A stretch of DNA of 64,000 nucleotides from Acidobacteriota bacterium (GTDB lineage: Bacteria; Acidobacteriota; UBA6911). The notes beneath the pieces were generated by a model, which had not been told where the DNA came from, searched no databases, and worked only from the letters and a program-made list of their open reading frames with translations. Location of the stretch: the NCBI GenBank assembly GCA_963664705.1, contig OY761556.1:4192001-4256000 (forward strand). Direction: 5' to 3'. This document shows positions 1-7,929 of this stretch, piece after piece. Every line of letters starts with the position of its first letter. Position 1 is the stretch's first letter. The position numbers and the translations under genes are program-made.

Positions 1-1483
1 TTGAAGCGACTCCGCAAGCGGCGCCCCACCCGCCATCTTCATTCTGGGAAGACAGCAGGTAATTGATTCCGGACTCGCAAGCCCGCTCCGTCCGGTTGAA
101 TTCACCAAATGCCATCAGAACGCGGGCAGTACCGAAAACGGGATTCCGAAGGTCGGGAGTCTGCTGACTGCCGAACCAAAGCGGAGTCCAGGACCCATCC
201 TCATGCTGCATTTTTTCAAGGAACCTGAAACCTCTGGCAACGGAAATGCTATCACCTTGGCCATTGGCGAGCAAAGCGCGAAGGGCATGGGCAGTTATGT
301 CGGTACAACTCCGGTCAAAAGGGAGCTTGCCCCAGCCCTTGCAGAATGGCGGCCACCCCCCATCCGCATTCTGAAGATTCGTCAGCCAGCGAAGACCTTT
401 TTTGCGATAGGAGAGGAAAGGATCGTTCGTATGAACCGAATTGGCAGTTGCCCGGGCCGCGTTGACGGACAGCGCAAGCAAAACGCTGGAAGTGTCATCG
501 CCATCAGGAACGGAGCCGCTAAGATCGGTCCATCCCCAACCGCCCGGTTCGGCATTCGTGAAGGGATGAACCCTCTGCATTTGATTCCCGGCGAGCCATT
601 CCAGTATGGATGCCGGAGTTTCAACTCCCGCGGAGCTCAGGGCATTCACCGCACAGGAGGTGACCCAGATTGCCAGGTTCGTATCGATAGGCCAGGAACC
701 GTCGGGGCGCTGAAGCGTTCGCAAGAAGGACAGCGCATGCTCCAAAACCTTGAGTGCGGACCCGGAGCATAAGGATCCGCTGGAGTTCATCGAGAGCAAG
801 GACAGCGCGACAAAAGCGGTCAATGGAACCGCTTCGAGAAATCCGCCGGACTCCGGCTGAAGCTTCTCCAGAATTCTCAGAGCTTTCTTTTCGACGAAGG
901 CTCCCAACAGGCTCTGCCCGCGCCGCTTGTCAATCACCAGCCCAACCGCAATCAGTGCCGGCATGGCATAGCTGACCACCTGCAGCCGAAGCGTTTTATA
1001 GAGGCGCTGCGGCATCACGGCTAGAGGATAGGGCAGTCGCGGGACCTGATCCCACGACACCAGGCCAGCCGCTGCACAGGTCATTAAAATCGGGACTGAG
1101 AAGGTATGATCATCGCCATAAATTCGGCGAATGCCTGCAGCGATATCATCGCCCAGGATTTTGTGAAGATAGGCTGCCGCACGGGAATTGTCTCCTCTGC
1201 CGGTGATGCGAAAGGCCGAAAGTACAAGAATCGTTGTCGAAGGATTGCTGATGGATTTTGGGCAATCACCCCACCCTCCATCCTCGCGCTGCGTCCGTTC
1301 CAACCATTGGCAGCCTTTGTCGATGCGTTCCCTGTCCCCGGAATTTCCGTTCAAATGCAGGGCAATAATGGCCAAAGCTCCCGCCAGCGCCGAAGACGAA
1401 AGCCGGCCCTGCCAATGCCCCTCCGGCCCCATCTCGGCCAGAAGCATCTTCACCGCATGGTTCAGGGCTTCCTGTGCCGTCAT
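1..1483 (-). CDS. Squalene-hopene cyclase-like / prenyltransferase-squalene oxidase repeat protein (3' end beyond the window edge; absent from the ORF track)
   Basis: Hand translation from ATG 1483 (ATGA overlap with the upstream stop) gives MTAQEALNHAVKMLLAEMGPEGHWQGRLSSSALA..., open to base 1. It has five QW motifs (QREDGGW, QRPDGSW, QNADGGW, QHEDGSW, QNEDGGW) and a class II cyclase-like motif PDGDDT at 491-508. Confidence 0.9.
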   Translation of the reverse strand, partial: MTAQEALNHAVKMLLAEMGPEGHWQGRLSSSALAGALAIIALHLNGNSGDRERIDKGCQWLERTQREDGGWGDCPKSISNPSTTILVLSAFRITGRGDNSRAAAYLHKILGDDIAAGIRRIYGDDHTFSVPILMTCAAAGLVSWDQVPRLPYPLAVMPQRLYKTLRLQVVSYAMPALIAVGLVIDKRRGQSLLGAFVEKKALRILEKLQPESGGFLEAVPLTAFVALSLLSMNSSGSLCSGSALKVLEHALSFLRTLQRPDGSWPIDTNLAIWVTSCAVNALSSAGVETPASILEWLAGNQMQRVHPFTNAEPGGWGWTDLSGSVPDGDDTSSVLLALSVNAARATANSVHTNDPFLSYRKKGLRWLTNLQNADGGWPPFCKGWGKLPFDRSCTDITAHALRALLANGQGDSISVARGFRFLEKMQHEDGSWTPLWFGSQQTPDLRNPVFGTARVLMAFGEFNRTERACESGINYLLSSQNEDGGWGAACGVAS

Positions 1484-2946
1484 CCTTCAGCCCTTCTCTT
1501 CTTCAGCCTGAACGCGGCATTCCACCACACAACCTGGCTTTTTCCGATAATCTGTGCGGCAATACTGCGAAAAGCCGGTGCACCCGAACCTCGCTCATTG
1601 TCCCACACCAGTCTCGGCACCCATCTGAAATTGAGGCGATAGGATTCAATGACCGTCTGCCAATGAAGGCGATTCAGCCGGGGCAACGAGTCCCCTGGAC
1701 CCAGCGGAGCAAGCATCACCGGAAACACTGACATCCGCTGATCATGGAGTTCCTGAACCCAGCGGAGACTGAGCTCCGCATCGCGCGGTTCTTCGCTCGA
1801 CAATCCGAGTACGATTGAAACCAGTGGGAAAAAACCGGCGCGAATCAGCCTGCGCATTTGCTGCTGCGTGAATCCATACCAGTCATCCGGATGGTATCCT
1901 GCCATCTTCGCCTTCCCGCCATTCCTTGCCAGGAGCCCTCCCGATGCCGTTTCAACTCCGATATTCACCCATAGGAACTCGTGCCGCTGCCCCAGTGTCA
2001 GGAGGCGATGAACTTCCCTCAATTCATCATCGCTGAACTGTGCAATCGAGCTCACGTTCACATGATCGATTTGAAGCAGTCTGATTGCCGGGTTTTTCCG
2101 GATCTGCCGCAGAGCGTCGATTAATGCCTCGGGGTGAACCTGTACACCGCGCGCACCATAGCGAAAGAAATCCTCGCTGAGCAGCGAAAAGCTTCTCTGT
2201 CCGCCGCGAAGATTTGCCTCGGCGTCATTCATGATCGTTTCCAGGGGCAGGTGCCTCATTGGCACATGGGCGATGGTGCAAAATTCGCATCCCAGCCCAC
2301 AACCGCGACTCATCTCAATGGCTCCCATGGACGCCGCACCCATGATGCCAGGTATATCTGCGGGCTGGTCTCCTTCTATCACTCCCAAAGGCCGCGGACT
2401 ATCCAAAAGACGCCTAAAAATGGATGCGATGTTGCCTTCGCAATAACCGTTGAGGATGGTCAGATCCCGCGGTTGTGTTTGGGAGAACTGCCAGGCACCG
2501 GGTCCGCCGATAACAATGGAGGCCTGTGGCGCAAGCCTCTTCACCTTTGCGTAGACCTGCTCAAAGAATACGCGAGCCCAGATTTGTCCGCCCGCGATGG
2601 CCATCATGGTTGATGAATTCATGCCCTTGCCCAGTGGTTCGCCGGTCGCAATGCCGACAATGCGGGTCTCGGGCCCAATCGCATCCTGCAGGCGATCCGG
2701 GTGCACCGCAATGGACCTGATTCCCTCGCGGCACAATGCGGATTCAATGCGCCGTAAGCCAAGCGGCGCACATACGGCCGCAAGATCGCCGGATGACGGC
2801 CGGGGCATCAGAAGACTCTCAAGAACGATACGCGGCGTCGTTGTTGTCTGGCTAGCCGCTACCATTGCGTCAAACAGACACGCATAATTGGCCATCAACA
2901 TCCGGTCTGCCGTAAGGACAATGGGGAAACCGCGTGGTGTGGACAT
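1480..2946 (-). CDS. Radical SAM protein with B12-binding-like N-terminal domain, resembling the GDGT ring synthase (Grs) family
   Basis: CxxxCxxC motif (RGCGLGCEFC) and upstream motifs IVLTADR, APLGLRRIE, IVIGGPGAWQ, SEDFFRYG, NIGVETAS. Confidence 0.85.
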   Translation of the reverse strand: MSTPRGFPIVLTADRMLMANYACLFDAMVAASQTTTTPRIVLESLLMPRPSSGDLAAVCAPLGLRRIESALCREGIRSIAVHPDRLQDAIGPETRIVGIATGEPLGKGMNSSTMMAIAGGQIWARVFFEQVYAKVKRLAPQASIVIGGPGAWQFSQTQPRDLTILNGYCEGNIASIFRRLLDSPRPLGVIEGDQPADIPGIMGAASMGAIEMSRGCGLGCEFCTIAHVPMRHLPLETIMNDAEANLRGGQRSFSLLSEDFFRYGARGVQVHPEALIDALRQIRKNPAIRLLQIDHVNVSSIAQFSDDELREVHRLLTLGQRHEFLWVNIGVETASGGLLARNGGKAKMAGYHPDDWYGFTQQQMRRLIRAGFFPLVSIVLGLSSEEPRDAELSLRWVQELHDQRMSVFPVMLAPLGPGDSLPRLNRLHWQTVIESYRLNFRWVPRLVWDNERGSGAPAFRSIAAQIIGKSQVVWWNAAFRLKKRRAEG

Positions 2947-2955
2947 GCGGACAGA

Positions 2956-3765
2956 TTATACCTGAGTGTCGAGAGCGTCGATCAAGGAATCAATATCATC
3001 CTGGATGGGCGACTTGGGTGGCGCAAACGGGCTGCCGCATTCCGGGCAGGTATCCTCTCGATTCGGCGCCGATCCCGAAGGAATGGTTTTGCACACCGGA
3101 CAAGCCTGCCTGGTCCGCATATAGAACATACGGCGCGAGTTTTTATCCGGCGACATGAACACCCCGGGAGTGCCGCAGATGGCCTGATCGCGGGAGTAGA
3201 GCGGGAACATGATCGCGCCCTTGGGGCAGATTCGCGAGCACGCCGGGCAGCCGGTCTTGCAGGCATCCGGATTGCTGGCAATCACTGCCTGAGCTTCATT
3301 GCGCGTATACACGCCAAACAGGCAGAACTGGAGACATTGACCGCATTCGTCGCAACGACTTTTGTCAACAACCGGATACCATCTCAATTTTTCAGGATCG
3401 ACACTGTTTGCCGATAGCAAGACGTCGACGCTATCCGCAGGTACGTTCGATGCACTGGCATCGGCGGCCATCTCAGCCATCGCCGCGAAACAGGCATCCG
3501 CGGAATCATAGGCATCATATCGATAGGTAGCACCGCGAAGTCCGTGCCGATGCAGCAGCCATTTTGCCGGGCGAGGATGCAGCGAACTCCAGACCGCGGA
3601 GATCGGACCGCAGGCCGCCAGTTGATCCCACAGGGGACTGCTTTCAGGAATATGGTACAGCGGAGGCGTCATGACGACGCGGAAGCCTGATTCCACGCAT
3701 TTCCCGGCCATAGCCGAAACACGCGCCTTATCTTTACAACGGCTAAGCACAATAAGCTTGGACAT
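2956..3765 (-). CDS. 2[4Fe-4S] ferredoxin-domain protein with C-terminal Zn-ribbon-like motif
   Basis: CDECGQCLQFC and CKTGCPACSRICP cluster motifs, plus C-terminal CPVC...CPEC. Confidence 0.85.
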   Translation of the reverse strand: MSKLIVLSRCKDKARVSAMAGKCVESGFRVVMTPPLYHIPESSPLWDQLAACGPISAVWSSLHPRPAKWLLHRHGLRGATYRYDAYDSADACFAAMAEMAADASASNVPADSVDVLLSANSVDPEKLRWYPVVDKSRCDECGQCLQFCLFGVYTRNEAQAVIASNPDACKTGCPACSRICPKGAIMFPLYSRDQAICGTPGVFMSPDKNSRRMFYMRTRQACPVCKTIPSGSAPNREDTCPECGSPFAPPKSPIQDDIDSLIDALDTQV

Positions 3766-3843
3766 ACTCTATGATTTTATATGATACCTCGGGTCAAACA
3801 TAAAGATTCTTCCCGTTTGGCCGCCGCGGCGATCACCCCGAGA

Positions 3844-4935
3844 TCAGGATATCGTTGTATACCTAAAAGTCGGGCTTGGCCTGCCCGGCATCAAACATCG
3901 CAATGACTGTACGGCGGCGGATACACCGGTTTTTGCGGAACCACCTATTGCATCCCTCACTATTGTCTCCAGTTCGACGGGCGAGATTTGAACTCTGGCA
4001 TTCAGAATACAGCGCGCCTTTGTTCCCGAAAAAGCGTCCTCCGTGTTTATGGCAACCAATCCGCCCAGGCGCGTCAGGTTGAGCGTGCATTCCCTTTCGC
4101 CCGATTCAATCATAAGTTTAACGTGACCAATTTCCGCATTGCGGCTTTGAAATGATGCCTTCAGGTCATTCATGAGTCGGAAGCCATACTTCGCCCATTC
4201 CACCTGGCCATCGACAGATTCCAGATCAATCGCAGCGTTGAGCCAGCCAAGGACTGCCTCTCCTTCGGCATATCGGTCATAGTCAACCTCAACAATGTGG
4301 CTGCCGGCTTTTTTGCCGCTAAAAACATCGGCGAGCCAGGCTTCCAAACCCTCTCCCGTCCTTGCGGAAATCGCATCTACGGATGACTCGGGAAAGGACT
4401 CGCGAAGGAAATGGAGCATGGTCATGCGCTCGCTTGCACTCAGGGTATCTACCTTATTCAGCAATATTCTATCCGCCTCGAGCATTTGGAGGCGAAGGAT
4501 ATATTGAGCATTCTCATGCATCAGGGAATTTTTCGTCTGCAGCACTTCCCGGACCCGTTCCGGATCCACCAAAACCGTCAGTGGAGCCAGATCAATTTCA
4601 GGATATTTGTCTTTGATCGGCTGAAGAATGGTTGCGGACAGATCGGTGCAACTGCCCACCGGCTCCGCCAGGATTATGCCTGCGCCTTGTTGAGCCAGCG
4701 ATTTCACAGCGCCCATGAACCCCGGGAAATTGCAGCAAAAGCAGCTTCCCGCCACCTCGCGCACTTCGGCTCCCGACCGCATCAGCGTGGCGGTATCCAC
4801 GAGATCGGGCGCCTGATCGTTGCTGACCAGTCCAACCGTTTGTTTATCCCCGATCAGACGCCGTGCAGCTTCACGCAACACAGTTGTCTTCCCGGCACCC
4901 AGAAATCCGCCGACCAGTATTAGCCTAACTTTCAT
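3844..4935 (-). CDS. CobW/HypB-like G3E family metallochaperone GTPase
   Basis: Walker A GGFLGAGKTT, GSCFCC metal motif, AEPVGSC, NKVD, SAxTGEG. Confidence 0.9.
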   Translation of the reverse strand: MKVRLILVGGFLGAGKTTVLREAARRLIGDKQTVGLVSNDQAPDLVDTATLMRSGAEVREVAGSCFCCNFPGFMGAVKSLAQQGAGIILAEPVGSCTDLSATILQPIKDKYPEIDLAPLTVLVDPERVREVLQTKNSLMHENAQYILRLQMLEADRILLNKVDTLSASERMTMLHFLRESFPESSVDAISARTGEGLEAWLADVFSGKKAGSHIVEVDYDRYAEGEAVLGWLNAAIDLESVDGQVEWAKYGFRLMNDLKASFQSRNAEIGHVKLMIESGERECTLNLTRLGGLVAINTEDAFSGTKARCILNARVQISPVELETIVRDAIGGSAKTGVSAAVQSLRCLMPGRPSPTFRYTTIS

Positions 4936-4938
4936 GAA

Positions 4939-5775
4939 TTACTCCATTTCACTTTTTCCGCAGCTGCCACAGCACTTGCCGGCATCGGCTCCCGATTTCA
5001 TCGCTGGCTCCAGGATACGAACAAAGAACTGCGAAGCGAGGACTCCGCCGACCAGCGGAGCCAGAATATACACATGGAAGAAACCGCCCACGCGATCGGG
5101 CAATGCGGCATCCCTCCACCCCATAAGCCATGCGACCATACGGGGGCCAAAATCGCGCGCAGGATTCAGCCCGGCCTGCGTGATCGGCGCGACCAGGCAA
5201 ATAATCGAGGTAACGGTCAAACCTATGAAAACCGGAGCCAGAGCATTGTCCGGTCGACCGACATTGCACCCTTCCGTCAGGGCGAAAATCATCAGCACCA
5301 GGAGAAAGGTGCCGAGGGCCTCCGCTCCAATTGCAACAGGAAGCGAGACCACCGCAGCACTTCCCGGGTCCGGGTAGAACTCGCCAAACATTTTCGCCGT
5401 CTGCACCGATGCAGCCGTTCCCCTCACGATCTGATGCGTCGTTTCGTAAGCCGTCAAGGAGGACGAGAACAGGGCATAAATCATACAGCCCGCGAGGAAC
5501 GCTCCGAGTAATTGAGCGGTCACATAGACCGGGAGCTTGCGAAATGCCATTCGGCCGCTCAACGCCATGGACAGACTGACCGCCGGGTTGAGGTGTGCAC
5601 AGGAAAGATGCCGCGTCAGGTAAATGGAAAGGGTAACGCCTATGCCCCATGCCAGCGCAATCTCCATCAAGCCCCTGTGGGCATTAAAAAGCACCGAAAC
5701 GGCAACCGATCCGCAACCAAACAGCACCAGCAGAAAGGTACCTAAGGCTTCACCGATAAACTCTCTCGTCCGCAT
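4939..5775 (-). CDS. MIP family aquaglyceroporin (GlpF-type) with Cys-rich tail
   Basis: Two NPA boxes (HLNPAV, GLNPARD), where NPARD is the glyceroporin signature. C-terminal CCGSC. Confidence 0.92.
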   Translation of the reverse strand: MRTREFIGEALGTFLLVLFGCGSVAVSVLFNAHRGLMEIALAWGIGVTLSIYLTRHLSCAHLNPAVSLSMALSGRMAFRKLPVYVTAQLLGAFLAGCMIYALFSSSLTAYETTHQIVRGTAASVQTAKMFGEFYPDPGSAAVVSLPVAIGAEALGTFLLVLMIFALTEGCNVGRPDNALAPVFIGLTVTSIICLVAPITQAGLNPARDFGPRMVAWLMGWRDAALPDRVGGFFHVYILAPLVGGVLASQFFVRILEPAMKSGADAGKCCGSCGKSEME

Positions 5776-5822
5776 AAACGATATCCTTCAGTCCGAATCA
5801 GCTCGAGCCCACTCAGGCATCC

Positions 5823-6221
5823 TCACTTTTTTTTGCAGCAGGAATTTTTCGTGCTGCCGCCTCCCGGAATCTTCCCCAGAGCATTCAGCAGGCCGTCGAT
5901 TTGCGCCCGGTAGTGCGTCAAAGTCTCTGTCCATCGCTGCAGACAGGCAACTCCATCCTTGGTTACGGCATAGCTGCGCTTTGCCGGTCCGGCATCTCCC
6001 AACTCCCAATTGGAGGAAACCAACCCCTCCTCTTCCATTGACTTGAGGATTTTGTAAACGCCGCTGGTATCGGGAGGAATCGCTGAAAACATTTGCAGCC
6101 TTTGCAACTGCTGAATGAGATCATAGCCGTGCGTCTTTTCCTGGGCCAGCAATCCAAGGATGGTTGGGCGCAGAAACCGATCCAGATTTCTGCCGGAACA
6201 TATACATTGGTTTAGATCCAT
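5823..6221 (-). CDS. PadR family transcriptional regulator, Cys-containing
   Basis: HGYDLIQQL...VYKILKSMEEEGLV...GPAKRSYAVTKDG. N-terminal CICSG, C-terminal CC, upstream SD GGAGG. Confidence 0.9.
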   Translation of the reverse strand: MDLNQCICSGRNLDRFLRPTILGLLAQEKTHGYDLIQQLQRLQMFSAIPPDTSGVYKILKSMEEEGLVSSNWELGDAGPAKRSYAVTKDGVACLQRWTETLTHYRAQIDGLLNALGKIPGGGSTKNSCCKKK

Positions 6222-6247
6222 TATGGGAGTTCCTCCAATAGTTACAC

Positions 6248-6276
6248 ACTCTATTTCCTTCCTGCTTCTCTGTCAA
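6248..6276 (-). promoter_or_regulatory. Sigma70-type promoter of the padR operon
   Basis: TTGACA (6276-6271), N17, TAGAGT (6253-6248). Confidence 0.7.
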
Positions 6277-6389
6277 TTGCAGAATCCCGGAACTGTGGTA
6301 AGCAAATGATCTGTCCGGTGGTTGTAGCAAGTGAAATGTCCGGTGCAAAGGTCTGAGTGAGATAAAGTGCCATCGCGAAAGGAGGAGCG

Positions 6390-7592
6390 ATGGGGCTATA
6401 TCCGACTCGGGCACTGGAGCGGGCGTTGAAAATACAATCAGTGATATTGCAGGCAATGAGTGGAAAAATACTGTGGTGCCAGGCAGCCGAGATCATCGGG
6501 ATATCGGACCGATCAATGAGGCGATGGCGAGAACGATATGAGGAACACGGTTACGACGGGCTCTATGATCGCAGGCTAAAGCGGCCGAGTCCAAAACGTG
6601 TTCCGTTAAAAACAGTGGAGAAAGTGCTTCGGCTTTATCGGGAGCAGTACTTCGATTTCAATGTTCGTCATTTCGTAGAAAAGCTGCATAAGGAACATGA
6701 TGTCGATCTGAGCTATACCTGGGTCAAGACAGCACTGCAAACGGCGGGATTGGTAGCCAAGAGTCGCAAGAAAGGGAAACACCGGAAAAAGCGCCCTCGG
6801 CGACCATTGTCAGGCATGATGCTCCATGTGGATGGCAGCACGCATTGCTGGCTGGAGGGCCAACAACACCACGACCTAGTAGCAATTCTGGATGACGCCA
6901 CGTCAGCGGTGTATTACGCACAGCTGGTCGATCAGGAGAGCACAGCGACGGTAATGGCCGGGTTGAAGGAAGTGGTTGAGAAGAAAGGCATCTTTTGCTC
7001 CCTGTATTCGGATCGCGGAAGCCATTTCTTCTACACTCCGGTTGCGGGAGGGCCACCCGATCGTACACGTAAGACTCAAATCGCCAGGGCCCTTGGACAA
7101 TTGGGGATTGAAACGATACCTGCTAACTCGCCGCAGGCTAGAGGGCGGTGTGAACGGTTTTTTGGAACTTGGCAAGGGCGTCTGCCGCAGGAACTCCGGT
7201 TAAAGAAAATCCAGACACTGGAGGCTGCAAATGAGTTCCTACGTAAAGAGTGGATACCTTTCCACAACAAGACCTTTACCGTTCCGGCACAACAGATGGG
7301 AAACGCTTTTGTGCCCTATTCTGGCACTCGTTCTGAGTTAGATAAGATCTTCTCCCACCAGGAGGAAAGAGATGTGGGTAACGACAATACCGTCAAACTT
7401 GGGAAAATCTGTATGCAGATCGAGCCACAAAAGTTTCGCTTCAGCATGGCTCGATGCCGAGTGCTTGTCTGTCGGCATTTGGATGAAACAATAAGCCTTC
7501 ATTACGGTCCCCATGTGCTGGGCCGTTATGATTCCAACGGGAAGGTTTTGAATCAGCCAGCTGTGAAACGAAGCAATAAGAATGCGGCCTGA
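6390..7592 (+). CDS. DDE transposase (ISNCY/IS1202 family)
   Basis: N-terminal HTH and rve-like core (HVDGSTH, LDDATS, YSDRGS, SPQARGRCERFFGTWQGRL). SD AGGAGG. Confidence 0.95.
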   Translation: MGLYPTRALERALKIQSVILQAMSGKILWCQAAEIIGISDRSMRRWRERYEEHGYDGLYDRRLKRPSPKRVPLKTVEKVLRLYREQYFDFNVRHFVEKLHKEHDVDLSYTWVKTALQTAGLVAKSRKKGKHRKKRPRRPLSGMMLHVDGSTHCWLEGQQHHDLVAILDDATSAVYYAQLVDQESTATVMAGLKEVVEKKGIFCSLYSDRGSHFFYTPVAGGPPDRTRKTQIARALGQLGIETIPANSPQARGRCERFFGTWQGRLPQELRLKKIQTLEAANEFLRKEWIPFHNKTFTVPAQQMGNAFVPYSGTRSELDKIFSHQEERDVGNDNTVKLGKICMQIEPQKFRFSMARCRVLVCRHLDETISLHYGPHVLGRYDSNGKVLNQPAVKRSNKNAA

Positions 7593-7606
7593 CGGGGCCG
7601 CGGTCT

Positions 7607-7653
7607 TTTTTCCTAAGCCGTTCCGGGCTACGCCCTCCACAGCTTAGGAAAAA
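7607..7653. terminator. Subterminal hairpin inside the IS, probably a bidirectional terminator
   Basis: TTTTTCCTAAGC...GGGC-TAC-GCCC...GCTTAGGAAAAA right after the transposase stop. Confidence 0.6.
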
Positions 7654-7929
7654 TCCCAAATAACTAAACCGGACATTTCATTTGCTATAAAAACCGGACA
7701 TCTTGATTTGCTACGAACATTGCAGAATCCCGGAACTGGCAAATCCTGAGATCGAACCGAGGAAAAATCCCATTTCATCACGGGGAAAGCTTAAATCACG
7801 CGAAGTTAGCGCTGATCCTAAGCACTCCTTTCGGCAAGACCCCGAAAATACTCTGGTGCCGGAGTGCGGATGGTATTTATAATATTCTAATAAATCATTG
7901 GATGCTTGAGTCTGAACGGAGATTCGATC

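Follow-up and report, generated by a model that had tools for sequence, protein, structure and literature searches.

Organization of the locus

At the left end of the window (the whole 64,000-nucleotide stretch of DNA analysed), six minus-strand genes form a tight run whose open reading frames were re-found with gaps of 47, 3, 78 and 9 bp, followed by a 4-bp overlap (Table 1). The gene families named in a preliminary description of the locus hold: Pfam cut-offs are passed by PadR, MIP, CobW and both SQHop_cyclase domains, and the Fer4 match of the ferredoxin-domain protein and the Radical_SAM match of the radical SAM (rSAM) protein score just below theirs. The run itself is longer than described. 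It extends past base 1 on the left and comprises eight genes: the cyclase gene ends ~230 bp beyond the window edge, a DUF116-polyprenyl synthase gene lies 6 bp further on, and a toroid gene overlaps the synthase by 4 bp. These last two, the most telling genes of the run, had been missed because they lie outside the window. No significant terminator-like fold follows the last gene.

Table 1. Features of the eight-gene run and its upstream flank.
Feature	Position	Strand	Details
ISNCY-family insertion sequence, outside the operon	6296..7718	+	transposase 6390-7592; NF033594 349.6 bits vs 250
Predicted sigma-70 promoter TTGACA-N17-TAGAGT of the PadR cassette	6248..6276 (6276-6248)	-	consensus match
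Candidate PadR operator, palindrome TATTGGAG-N3-CTCCAATA, 1 mismatch	6222..6240	.	covers padR ribosome-binding site
PadR-family regulator, cassette gene 1	5823..6221	-	132 aa; PF03551 55.4 bits vs 27
GlpF-type aquaglyceroporin (MIP), Cys-rich, cassette gene 2	4939..5775	-	278 aa; TIGR00861 178 bits vs 171.25
G3E (CobW-like) GTPase with CxCC, cassette gene 3	3844..4935	-	363 aa; PF02492 65.5 bits vs 20.7
78-bp spacer, inferred cassette/core junction	3766..3843	-
Ferredoxin-domain protein, predicted 2x[4Fe-4S], core gene 1	2956..3765	-	269 aa; Fer4 below cut-off
Radical SAM protein, C216/C220/C223, core gene 2	1480..2946	-	488 aa
SHC-like class II cyclase, core gene 3	1..1483, off left end; whole gene G000:C1:4191774-4193483 = L001:15774-17483	-	569 aa
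DUF116::trans-polyprenyl diphosphate synthase, core gene 4	L001:14124-15767, left of window	-	547 aa
Alpha/alpha-toroid prenyltransferase-like protein, core gene 5	L001:13204-14127, left of window	-	307 aa; PF00432 55.2 bits vs 26.5

The PadR–aquaglyceroporin–G3E cassette

Cys6, Cys8 and Cys93 of PadR are kept in at least 90% of 21 aligned rows, and C21, C59, C170 and C193 of the aquaglyceroporin reach the same level over 76 rows. The channel carries both NPA motifs (N63-P-A and N204-P-A-R-D), and its nearest relative among 51 PDB sequences is GlpF (1fx8, E 6.8e-44). The selectivity filter predicted by alignment, W43/I192/A201/R207, departs from the W/G/F/R filter of GlpF and resembles the plant NIP-I filter. 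The G3E GTPase has Walker A (9-18), CxCC (65-68), ExxG (91-94) and NKxD (160-163) motifs, and no named NCBIfam equivalog passes its cut-off for it. In a quick tree this GTPase falls within the MIP-linked group (SH-aLRT 100), and the 11 cyclase-linked G3Es stand apart from it. A chimera formed by recombination of the two G3E clades was considered and rejected: the MIP-linked rows are nearer in 9/9 windows of 40 residues.

In 80 loci anchored on MIP homologues, a G3E gene is present in 58, directly downstream in 48 of the 67 with room for it. PadR accompanies 22 of the 80 and an ArsR/SmtB-type regulator 28, the two never sharing a locus. ArsR/SmtB proteins sense many ions. Ferredoxin, rSAM, synthase and toroid genes are found in 0/80 of these loci, and the only core match of any kind is one cyclase match at 28% identity. 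A search of 251 genomes from the phylum to which genome G500 belongs gave no MIP at 1e-60, and the same PadR fronts TonB receptors, without MIP, in two genomes of the window's own genus. PadR-MIP-G3E is a separate cassette, present elsewhere independently of the core.

This cassette likely handles arsenic or a metal. Genes for ArsM-like, ArsS, ArsP, ArsG-like or Acr3 proteins lie in 11/80 MIP loci (0.67 Mb) as against 0/89 cyclase loci (1.40 Mb); the ArsM-like and ArsG-like neighbours score below NCBIfam cut-offs, and ArsM loci near MIP number 5 by the stricter tblastn used here and 10 by clustering. In one locus (L255) the cassette sits between two ArsR-ArsP pairs. No arsenic enzyme or transporter gene is visible in the other 69/80, and we hold the arsenic reading with moderate confidence. 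The arrangement recalls those ars operons that include an aquaglyceroporin gene (AqpS of Sinorhizobium meliloti; PMC6138428), in which a MIP channel likewise stands behind a cysteine-bearing repressor, and part of the MIP loci share ArsR-type, ArsM-like, ArsS, ArsP or Acr3 neighbours with them. Unlike those operons, the run lacks ArsC and ArsH, the usual partner is the CxCC G3E, and PadR replaces ArsR in 22/80 loci. ArsB, Acr3 and ArsM are likewise missing from the run, the genome's arsR-acr3 and arsM lying ~780 kb away. A literature search returned no paper on an ArsR/PadR-controlled aquaglyceroporin-G3E combination.

Promoter, candidate operator and insertion sequence

The TTGACA-N17-TAGAGT promoter of the preliminary description is present, and the match alone is no better than chance (1 site against 4.6 expected in shuffles). 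The call is supported because TTGACA recurs before padR homologues, upstream of 8 of 13. The palindrome over the padR ribosome-binding site, a motif derived from padR upstream regions, is the best match in the 6.9-Mb genome, which holds 1 site with 1 mismatch, 1 with 2 and 29 with 3. It recurs at the padR start in 4/5 loci outside the derivation set, with 0, 1, 2 and 4 mismatches; the locus with 0 mismatches nearly duplicates one that served for the derivation. Comparison of these upstream regions shows the predicted promoter and the palindromic candidate operator to travel with PadR.

An ISNCY element with direct and inverted repeats, which recurs once more in identical form elsewhere in the genome, is inserted right at the -35 box and flanked by a 20-bp target duplication (6276-6295 / 7719-7738). 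A promoter supplied by this element was ruled out, since the -35 box lies outside it save one base of the target duplication.

The predicted terpenoid core

The cyclase is of the class II type; QW repeats and a DxDD motif, noted in the preliminary description, mark class II triterpene cyclases. It has six QW-type repeats and a D327-G-D329-D330 motif in which D327, D329 and D330 are invariant in 39 rows, and its model (pLDDT 91.7) adopts the two-toroid fold with a TM score of 0.78 to SHC 1sqc at 21% identity. This fold and motif would fit an ordinary hopanoid cyclase, a reading that, taken together with an assembly artefact (below), is extremely improbable and largely refuted. The 494-aa in-window part scores 112.7 bits against the TIGR01507 cut-off of 431.1, the protein is 22% identical to the genome's hpn-linked SHC, its active-site lining differs, and no squalene synthase lies nearby. 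In a tree whose outgroup comprised the genome's two true SHCs only, it sits on a long branch (SH-aLRT 100) away from both and groups with rows from Gemmata, Verrucomicrobiota and Bacteroidota. The two true hopene cyclases lie elsewhere in the genome (TIGR01507 678 and 639 bits vs 431), one of them ~870 kb away with SQS, HpnA-like and IspH genes. The placement of this cyclase outside the ordinary SHC group is thus borne out.

The protein resembles the 'SHC-like' or unknown-function clade of class II cyclases described by Santana-Molina et al. 2020 (PMC7306690) and McShea et al. 2025 (PMC12414744), where a non-squalene substrate is proposed and a link to polyprenyl synthase is made. Shared with that clade are the two-domain architecture, an intact DxDD, a polyprenyl synthase next door and relatives in Planctomycetota (including Gemmata), Verrucomicrobiota, Bacteroidota and Acidobacteriota; a nearby synthase and a PVC, FCB and Acidobacteriota distribution mark the clade and are found here, and the 569-aa length with catalytic residues falls in the 550-700 aa range given in the methods of PMC12414744. 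The earlier reading of a pathway with no characterised product stands; the clade and its synthase link were already in print in these papers. The DUF116 fusion and the ferredoxin, toroid and rSAM partners do not figure in the passages on the SHC-like clade in either paper; ferredoxin is absent from both main texts, and DUF116, radical SAM and prenyltransferase from the main text of PMC7306690. The PadR-MIP-G3E front end further sets the run apart from the published cluster, being absent from 94 other loci. We found no newer literature on the SHC-like substrate.

The synthase matches PF01976 (102.9 bits) and PF00348 (128.2 bits) and has the IPPS fold (Z 33.4, rmsd 2.3, 311 aligned); both fold searches with the DUF116::synthase fusion were taken up by matches to the synthase domain. 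Its first DDxxD motif is invariant, and the second starts with N in 42/58 rows and with D in 16/58. Ala-Ser occupies positions -5/-4 before the first DDxxD in 58/58 rows, which by the rule for long-chain synthases would point to a long product. The neighbouring toroid protein has an invariant D285-x-E287. The ferredoxin-domain protein has eight conserved Cys at 138-180 and is 68% identical in G127, a genome of the same genus.

In the rSAM protein, C216, C220 and C223 of a single CxxxCxxC are invariant. Its best NCBIfam matches are B12-rSAM models, below cut-off, and its Atlas look-alikes are named B12-rSAM at 0.99; the Pfam B12-binding domain gives no match. Archaeal proxies, which we assume to resemble Grs and which are not validated Grs sequences, align at 25-26% identity (E ~1e-30; hhalign 100% over 434 columns), and a Methanopyrus homologue matches at E 6e-71. 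Archaeal GrsA and GrsB are GDGT ring synthases, which form cyclopentane rings on isoprenoid chains, and Gmm, Cgm, Pgm and Ted are related B12-rSAM lipid enzymes. The traits in common with this group are full-length homology, at 22-32%, to an archaea-rich B12-rSAM family, a length of ~490 aa, one CxxxCxxC and an isoprenoid context; unlike the archaeal Grs-type enzymes, this rSAM stands in a bacterial branch of its own tied to a cyclase. Published Grs calls use BLAST to S. acidocaldarius GrsA/GrsB at E 1e-40 or better, 70% coverage and 20% identity (bioRxiv 2022.08.15.504015). The 'Grs-like' label holds as family kinship, judged against proxies, and carries nothing beyond it: the protein represents a bacterial offshoot of an archaea-rich B12-rSAM family of which Grs is likely a member. 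Because the wider group cyclises, methylates or desaturates, the exact reaction is not readable from the family.

Iron-sulfur and radical enzymes also distinguish the run, which has neither YtpB nor an epoxidase, from the Bacillus sesquarterpene route (SqhC, heptaprenyl synthase, YtpB) and from the actinomycete epoxy-polyprenyl cyclases Lon15 and AtoE, and would point to oxygen-free chemistry.

Two modules with separate neighbourhoods

Cyclase-anchored neighbourhoods were compared in 94 loci (80 + 9 + 5), 89 of which entered the arsenic-gene count; for the 13 closest cyclases (59-77%), the surrounding genes were visible in one case. PadR occurs in 0/94 and MIP in 1/94, a distant match at 26% identity. 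Among the first 80 loci, the synthase is present in 52, ferredoxin in 40, the toroid protein in 23 and a window-type rSAM in 15. The ferredoxin-rSAM-cyclase order recurs in 15 loci (one ends before ferredoxin), and the 11 whose upstream sequence reaches 4 kb or more carry no cassette gene there. In G127 (94% complete) all five core genes keep their order, at 65-73%; a thioesterase precedes them, and PadR, MIP and G3E have no match. No other of 30 genomes of the genus has both halves together. A weak further indication is that the longest-contig sizes of the 13 closest cyclases do not recur among the top 120 MIP or G3E homologues; the MIP and G3E lists share at least 9 such sizes (by inspection, longest contig only).

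A conserved unit of six genes is thereby rejected, the modules standing apart across 94 cyclase loci, 80 MIP loci and the genus. With it falls the self-contained six-gene pathway of the preliminary description, which was to be given up if the genes were not conserved together; its cyclisation of an unusual non-hopanoid lipid or terpenoid survives as a prediction for the core, and the reading as a whole is partly supported. It also had the operon import a small polyol or metalloid. The channel is of a metalloid type, and what it conducts probably does not enter the lipid pathway. That an imported polyol or metalloid is built into the lipid by one conserved pathway, giving for example an arsenic-bearing isoprenoid, is very improbable: the linkage is tight, prenylation of a small acceptor by the toroid protein is conceivable, and arsenosugar-type ArsS and ArsM-like genes flank the MIP family in 3/80 loci, but the lack of co-conservation weighs against it and the run contains no methyltransferase or kinase.

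The comparisons instead show two modules with separate neighbourhoods and separate nearest relatives. Their joining is no likely artefact of assembly: individual contigs from runs X1-X4, all of one sample that may itself be the source, cross the G3E-ferredoxin junction with zero differing letters, and a second study's run holds pieces of both modules at 99% identity or more, none listed across the junction.

The 78-bp spacer and the joining of the modules

We consider it rather likely that the locus is a composite operon, in which a PadR-MIP-G3E cassette, likely a sensor and conduit for arsenite or a related metal(loid), lies directly upstream of a widespread five-gene SHC-like cluster. The predicted product of that cluster is a cyclic isoprenoid lipid, not a hopanoid, built from a long polyprenyl chain. 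The cassette would have landed upstream of the core in this genome. By binding the palindrome that covers the padR ribosome-binding site, PadR would repress the promoter of its own gene, and a thiophilic ion captured by its cysteines would release it; As(OH)3 or a comparable uncharged compound would equilibrate through the channel, and the CxCC GTPase would hand on a metal or cofactor. In the core, the synthase would extend a head-to-tail chain beyond C20, without squalene, and the toroid protein would move the chain to an acceptor or remove its diphosphate. The DxDD cyclase would then protonate the terminal alkene and form rings, and the ferredoxin-fed rSAM would close a further ring, methylate or desaturate without oxygen. 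Read-through of the 78-bp spacer is probable and would now place the core under the signal sensed by PadR.

Should the two modules instead be neutral neighbours, the core would be transcribed separately, starting at a weak promoter within the spacer, and only position would be common to them, which is quite unlikely. The spacer is the widest gap of the run and turns A+T-rich at its end, where that promoter would lie; a hairpin with a T-run lies at 3887-3871, and no operator copy precedes the ferredoxin gene. However, the spacer has no promoter match at the scan threshold and folds no better than shuffles (z -0.59, no terminator-like fold), and the hairpin falls in coding sequence, the last codons of g3e, where a motif is conserved; the scan returned 18 such hairpin/T-run sites against 8.3 in shuffles. 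The spacer region has no visible likeness to the region upstream of the G127 core.

A third reading makes the GTPase the reason for the joining. The core would need a CxCC G3E to load cobalamin, an iron-sulfur cluster or another metal into the rSAM or DUF116, and would have regained one from the MIP-linked sister clade, so that the eight genes now act as one metal(loid)-responsive lipid-remodelling unit. The window's G3E occupies the position of the sister G3Es, which occur, mostly upstream of ferredoxin, in 14/94 cyclase loci (5/5 in the phylum sample), a cysteine desulfurase lies near the cyclase in 6/89, and the spacer has no terminator. In another phylum (201 genomes), the G3E subgroup nearest to that of the window, taken at E 1e-90 or better by a threshold picked once the data had been seen, is found in 6/21 genomes with the rSAM vs 2/180 without, kin among these genomes not being independent, and always on another contig than the rSAM; with all G3E matches the figures are 8/21 vs 40/180 (p 0.11). 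Against this partial co-occurrence, G127 keeps its core without such a G3E, 10 of 16 genomes with the rSAM cluster have no G3E match (many are incomplete), and the fusion is seen in one genome only. We regard such re-recruitment as rather unlikely.

Implications

Within the composite operon that we favour, the arrival of the G3E may have been selected, as cyclase clusters often carry their own sister G3E upstream of ferredoxin. A stronger proposal, that the graft as a whole was selected, would have a cysteine-sensing PadR, acting in place of ArsR through a palindromic operator of its own, switch on the oxygen-free synthesis of a new class of radical-modified cyclic polyprenoid lipid according to arsenite or metal status, with the CxCC G3E a cofactor chaperone recruited twice from sister clades. 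We think this unlikely; if true, it would tie metalloid stress to a new bacterial biomarker lipid and offer an inducer with which to isolate that lipid.

The six-gene set is a combination found in one genome, which lowers its weight. The aquaglyceroporin-G3E cassette under ArsR or PadR, with its candidate operator, is common in the metagenome loci examined. For the core, PMC12414744 and PMC7306690 make the substrate of SHC-like cyclases an open question for cyclase evolution and for unassigned terpane fossils. The locus provides a compact five-gene set for expression, and a possible inducer if read-through holds.

An eight-gene run and its promoter region

The preliminary description had set out six closely spaced minus-strand genes, and the sequence bears this out, with gaps of 47, 3, 78 and 9 bp followed by a 4-bp overlap. 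Continued to the left of base 1, as had been proposed, the genome sequence completes the cyclase (569 amino acids) and adds a DUF116::polyprenyl synthase (547 amino acids, 6 bp after the cyclase gene) and a single-toroid prenyltransferase-like protein (307 amino acids, its gene overlapping that of the synthase by 4 bp), so that the run has eight genes. We refer to the first three, encoding a PadR regulator, an aquaglyceroporin (MIP) and a CobW-like G3E GTPase, as the cassette, and to the remaining five, from the ferredoxin-domain protein and the radical SAM enzyme (rSAM) to the toroid protein, as the core. A small same-strand open reading frame for a 69-aa product, 80 bp past the toroid gene, matches no Pfam or NCBIfam family, and one of the 26 matches to the B12-radical SAM model in the genome is located 4 kb past the operon end (Table).

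In four sequencing runs from one sample the G3E–ferredoxin junction lies within single contigs, with zero differing letters; data of a second study (one run) contain near-identical fragments from both halves and, among the pieces listed, none across the junction. The promoter-like site described ahead of padR is present in the sequence, its match alone being not above chance (1 found versus 4.6 expected), and TTGACA occurs upstream of 8 of 13 padR homologues. An ISNCY insertion element separates this promoter from its original upstream DNA; its target duplication is unusually long and its ends are internally repeated. Since the genome holds two identical copies, the insertion is probably recent.

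Table. Coordinates of features in the operon region and elsewhere (G000, genome of the window; G119, same-genus genome; L, examined locus)
Feature	Coordinates	Strand	Remark
ISNCY element	window 6296-7718		abuts -35 box; 20-bp target duplication
ISNCY, identical second copy	G000:C1:1975549-1976971		
Candidate PadR operator	window 6222-6240		best palindrome match in genome
69-aa ORF	L001:12914-13123	-	
B12-radical SAM match	L001:7733-9403		
Second true squalene-hopene cyclase	L003:8520-10529 (G000:C1:4678520-4680529)		by O-methyltransferase and hydrogenase-like genes
Regulator, hgcA, hgcB, arsM run	L213 (G000:C1:4967304-4970055)		outside window
PadR and operator before G3E-TonB receptor-radical SAM	L195:8016-13241 (G119)		

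The cyclase fits the published SHC-like group

The cyclase adopts the squalene-hopene cyclase (SHC) fold (model pLDDT 91.7; TM 0.78 to 1sqc at 21% identity), carries six repeats of the QW type and has a DxDD motif that is invariant. Its in-window part reaches 112.7 with TIGR01507, where the cut-off is 431. Two true SHCs elsewhere in the genome score 678 and 639 bits, making three SHC-fold enzymes in all; one of the two adjoins squalene-synthase, HpnA-like and IspH genes, and the second lies apart from this hpn cluster. A quickly built phylogeny with 36 rows groups the protein with relatives from Armatimonadota, Planctomycetota, Verrucomicrobiota and Bacteroidota, far from the two true SHCs of its own genome. 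Of the 7994 candidates scored, 7601 match the cyclase at E 1e-20, and true SHCs may be among them. Santana-Molina et al. (PMC7306690) name such a group SHC-like, report that a polyprenyl synthase usually lies close by and propose a precursor other than squalene. McShea et al. (PMC12414744) place the SHC-like group as sister to epoxy-polyprenyl cyclases and state its function as not shown. The core is a further copy of this recognised cluster.

Cassette and core occupy separate neighbourhoods

Of 80 GTDB cyclase loci, 52 have the synthase, 40 the ferredoxin, 23 the toroid protein, 15 this rSAM, 5 a G3E, 1 a distant aquaporin and none PadR; a further nine loci at class level and five at phylum level yield no PadR or MIP. 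Short contigs are frequent among the loci, which makes these counts lower bounds. Among 80 metagenome loci of the aquaglyceroporin (MIP identity 69–81%), 58 have G3E, 22 have PadR and 28 others have a regulator of the ArsR/SmtB type, the commonest regulator-bearing orders being arsR-mip-g3e (22) and padR-mip-g3e (11); ferredoxin, rSAM, synthase and toroid genes are found in 0 of 80. More distant MIPs (41–49%) in two other phyla likewise neighbour G3E, PadR, ArsM-like or ArsP genes in some of their loci. Within the genus (30 genomes), 2 genomes have the cyclase, 3 PadR, 2 MIP and 3 G3E; both halves together occur only in the genome studied here. The same-genus genome G127 keeps the complete core, with gene order unchanged and at 65–73%, behind a thioesterase. 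In the G3E tree the window protein falls among MIP-linked rows (SH-aLRT 100), apart from 11 cyclase-linked rows. The earlier reading of an unusual, non-hopanoid lipid or terpenoid pathway stands for the core, but the six genes are not one conserved unit; the joining of cassette and core is a one-genome variant so far.

The 78-bp spacer between the two halves has no terminator-like fold, and transcription from the cassette is therefore likely to read through into the core. It is conceivable, though in our judgement unlikely, that the core needs a CxCC G3E protein and regained one here from the MIP-linked sister clade. In clusters of other gene orders, fourteen of 94 cyclase loci have a sister G3E of their own, in most cases ahead of the ferredoxin, and some of these G3E-bearing clusters also encode a cysteine desulfurase together with a GcvH-like protein. 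Across 201 genomes from the phylum of G501, the closest G3E subgroup, defined by a cut-off chosen afterwards and counted in related genomes, occurs in 6 of 21 genomes with this rSAM versus 2 of 180 without, on separate contigs. For the subfamily as a whole the counts are 8 of 21 versus 40 of 180 (p 0.11). No such G3E was found in 10 of the 16 genomes that carry this rSAM cluster. A second SHC-like order, G3E, ferredoxin, (radical SAM), synthase, toroid, cyclase, is seen at L099, L101-L103, L217-L221, L063 and L070, in some loci with a cysteine desulfurase; GcvH-like genes are present in 25 of 89 cyclase loci.

Predicted regulation and possible role of the cassette

The palindrome TATTGGAG-N3-CTCCAATA spans the ribosome-binding site of padR, an arrangement that we read as autoregulation. 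The motif recurs at the padR start in four of five loci outside the derivation set, one of the four being nearly identical to a locus of that set and another having 4 mismatches. In two same-genus genomes this PadR fronts TonB receptors with no MIP alongside (G119, Table; G116, where at L270 PadR and operator precede a TonB receptor and the contig ends); the reach of PadR thus extends beyond the aquaglyceroporin. In our literature search, neither cassette nor candidate operator was found in print. Two other layouts were observed: MIP-PadR-cysteine desulfurase at L130, L136, L141, L145 and L154, with an ArsG-like permease in two, and, at L116, L119 and L123, PadR-MIP with its operator shifted and a more distant G3E (34%) transcribed divergently, acr3 also being present at L119.

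PadR conserves Cys6, Cys8 and Cys93; in MIP four cysteines are conserved and a Cys-rich tail is usual; the GTPase carries CxCC. The channel is nearest GlpF, with NPARD kept and a W/I/A/R filter. Arsenic-type genes accompany 11 of 80 MIP loci versus 0 of 89 cyclase loci, with ArsS and ArsP above cut-offs and ArsM-like and ArsG-like proteins below, and AqpS is a described precedent for an aquaglyceroporin inside an ars operon (PMC6138428). The other 69 of 80 MIP loci show no arsenic-type gene, and this, together with the PadR-TonB loci devoid of MIP, argues against arsenic as the sole concern of the cassette. In the genome studied here, arsR-acr3 and arsM lie ~780 kb from the operon. As the putative substrate or signal of the cassette we rank arsenite or methylarsenite first, and a metal or cofactor second.

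Elsewhere in the genome, a MarR-like regulator (labelled by inspection) shares one run with hgcA (424.9 bits versus 275), hgcB (120.5 versus 99) and arsM (361.7 versus 263), with arsR-acr3 ~8 kb beyond; the organism is thus predicted to methylate mercury, and its hgcAB genes adjoin arsenic genes. No low-molecular-weight ArsC (PF01451) was found genome-wide.

Predicted chemistry of the core

Structural comparison assigns the synthase to the trans-IPPS fold (Z 33.4, rmsd 2.3, 311 residues aligned). Small residues stand ahead of the first DDxxD motif in each of the 58 rows, which we take to indicate a long-chain product, and the second motif begins with N instead of D in 42 of 58. The DUF116 part has seven conserved cysteine positions, six of them kept in the protein encoded here, and may bind an iron-sulfur cluster. 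In the toroid protein a D-x-E is invariant; protein prenyltransferase beta subunits have D-x-C at the corresponding place.

The rSAM enzyme represents a bacterial branch whose next full-length relatives are at 22–32%; among the 20 of 150 matches for which names were obtained are Methanopyrus, Bathyarchaeia, Archaeoglobaceae, Acidilobus and Bryobacteraceae. The N-terminal motifs of these relatives presumably resemble those of Grs. Grs is described as making rings within isoprenoid chains (PMC13459092), related B12-rSAM enzymes as methylating or desaturating (bioRxiv 2025.10.20.683597), and Acidobacteriae as carrying Grs homologues (bioRxiv 2022.08.15.504015). The core likely encodes a route in which a polyprenyl chain would be made, then transferred or relieved of its diphosphate, cyclised by proton initiation and finally tailored by radical chemistry, the whole proceeding without a requirement for oxygen.
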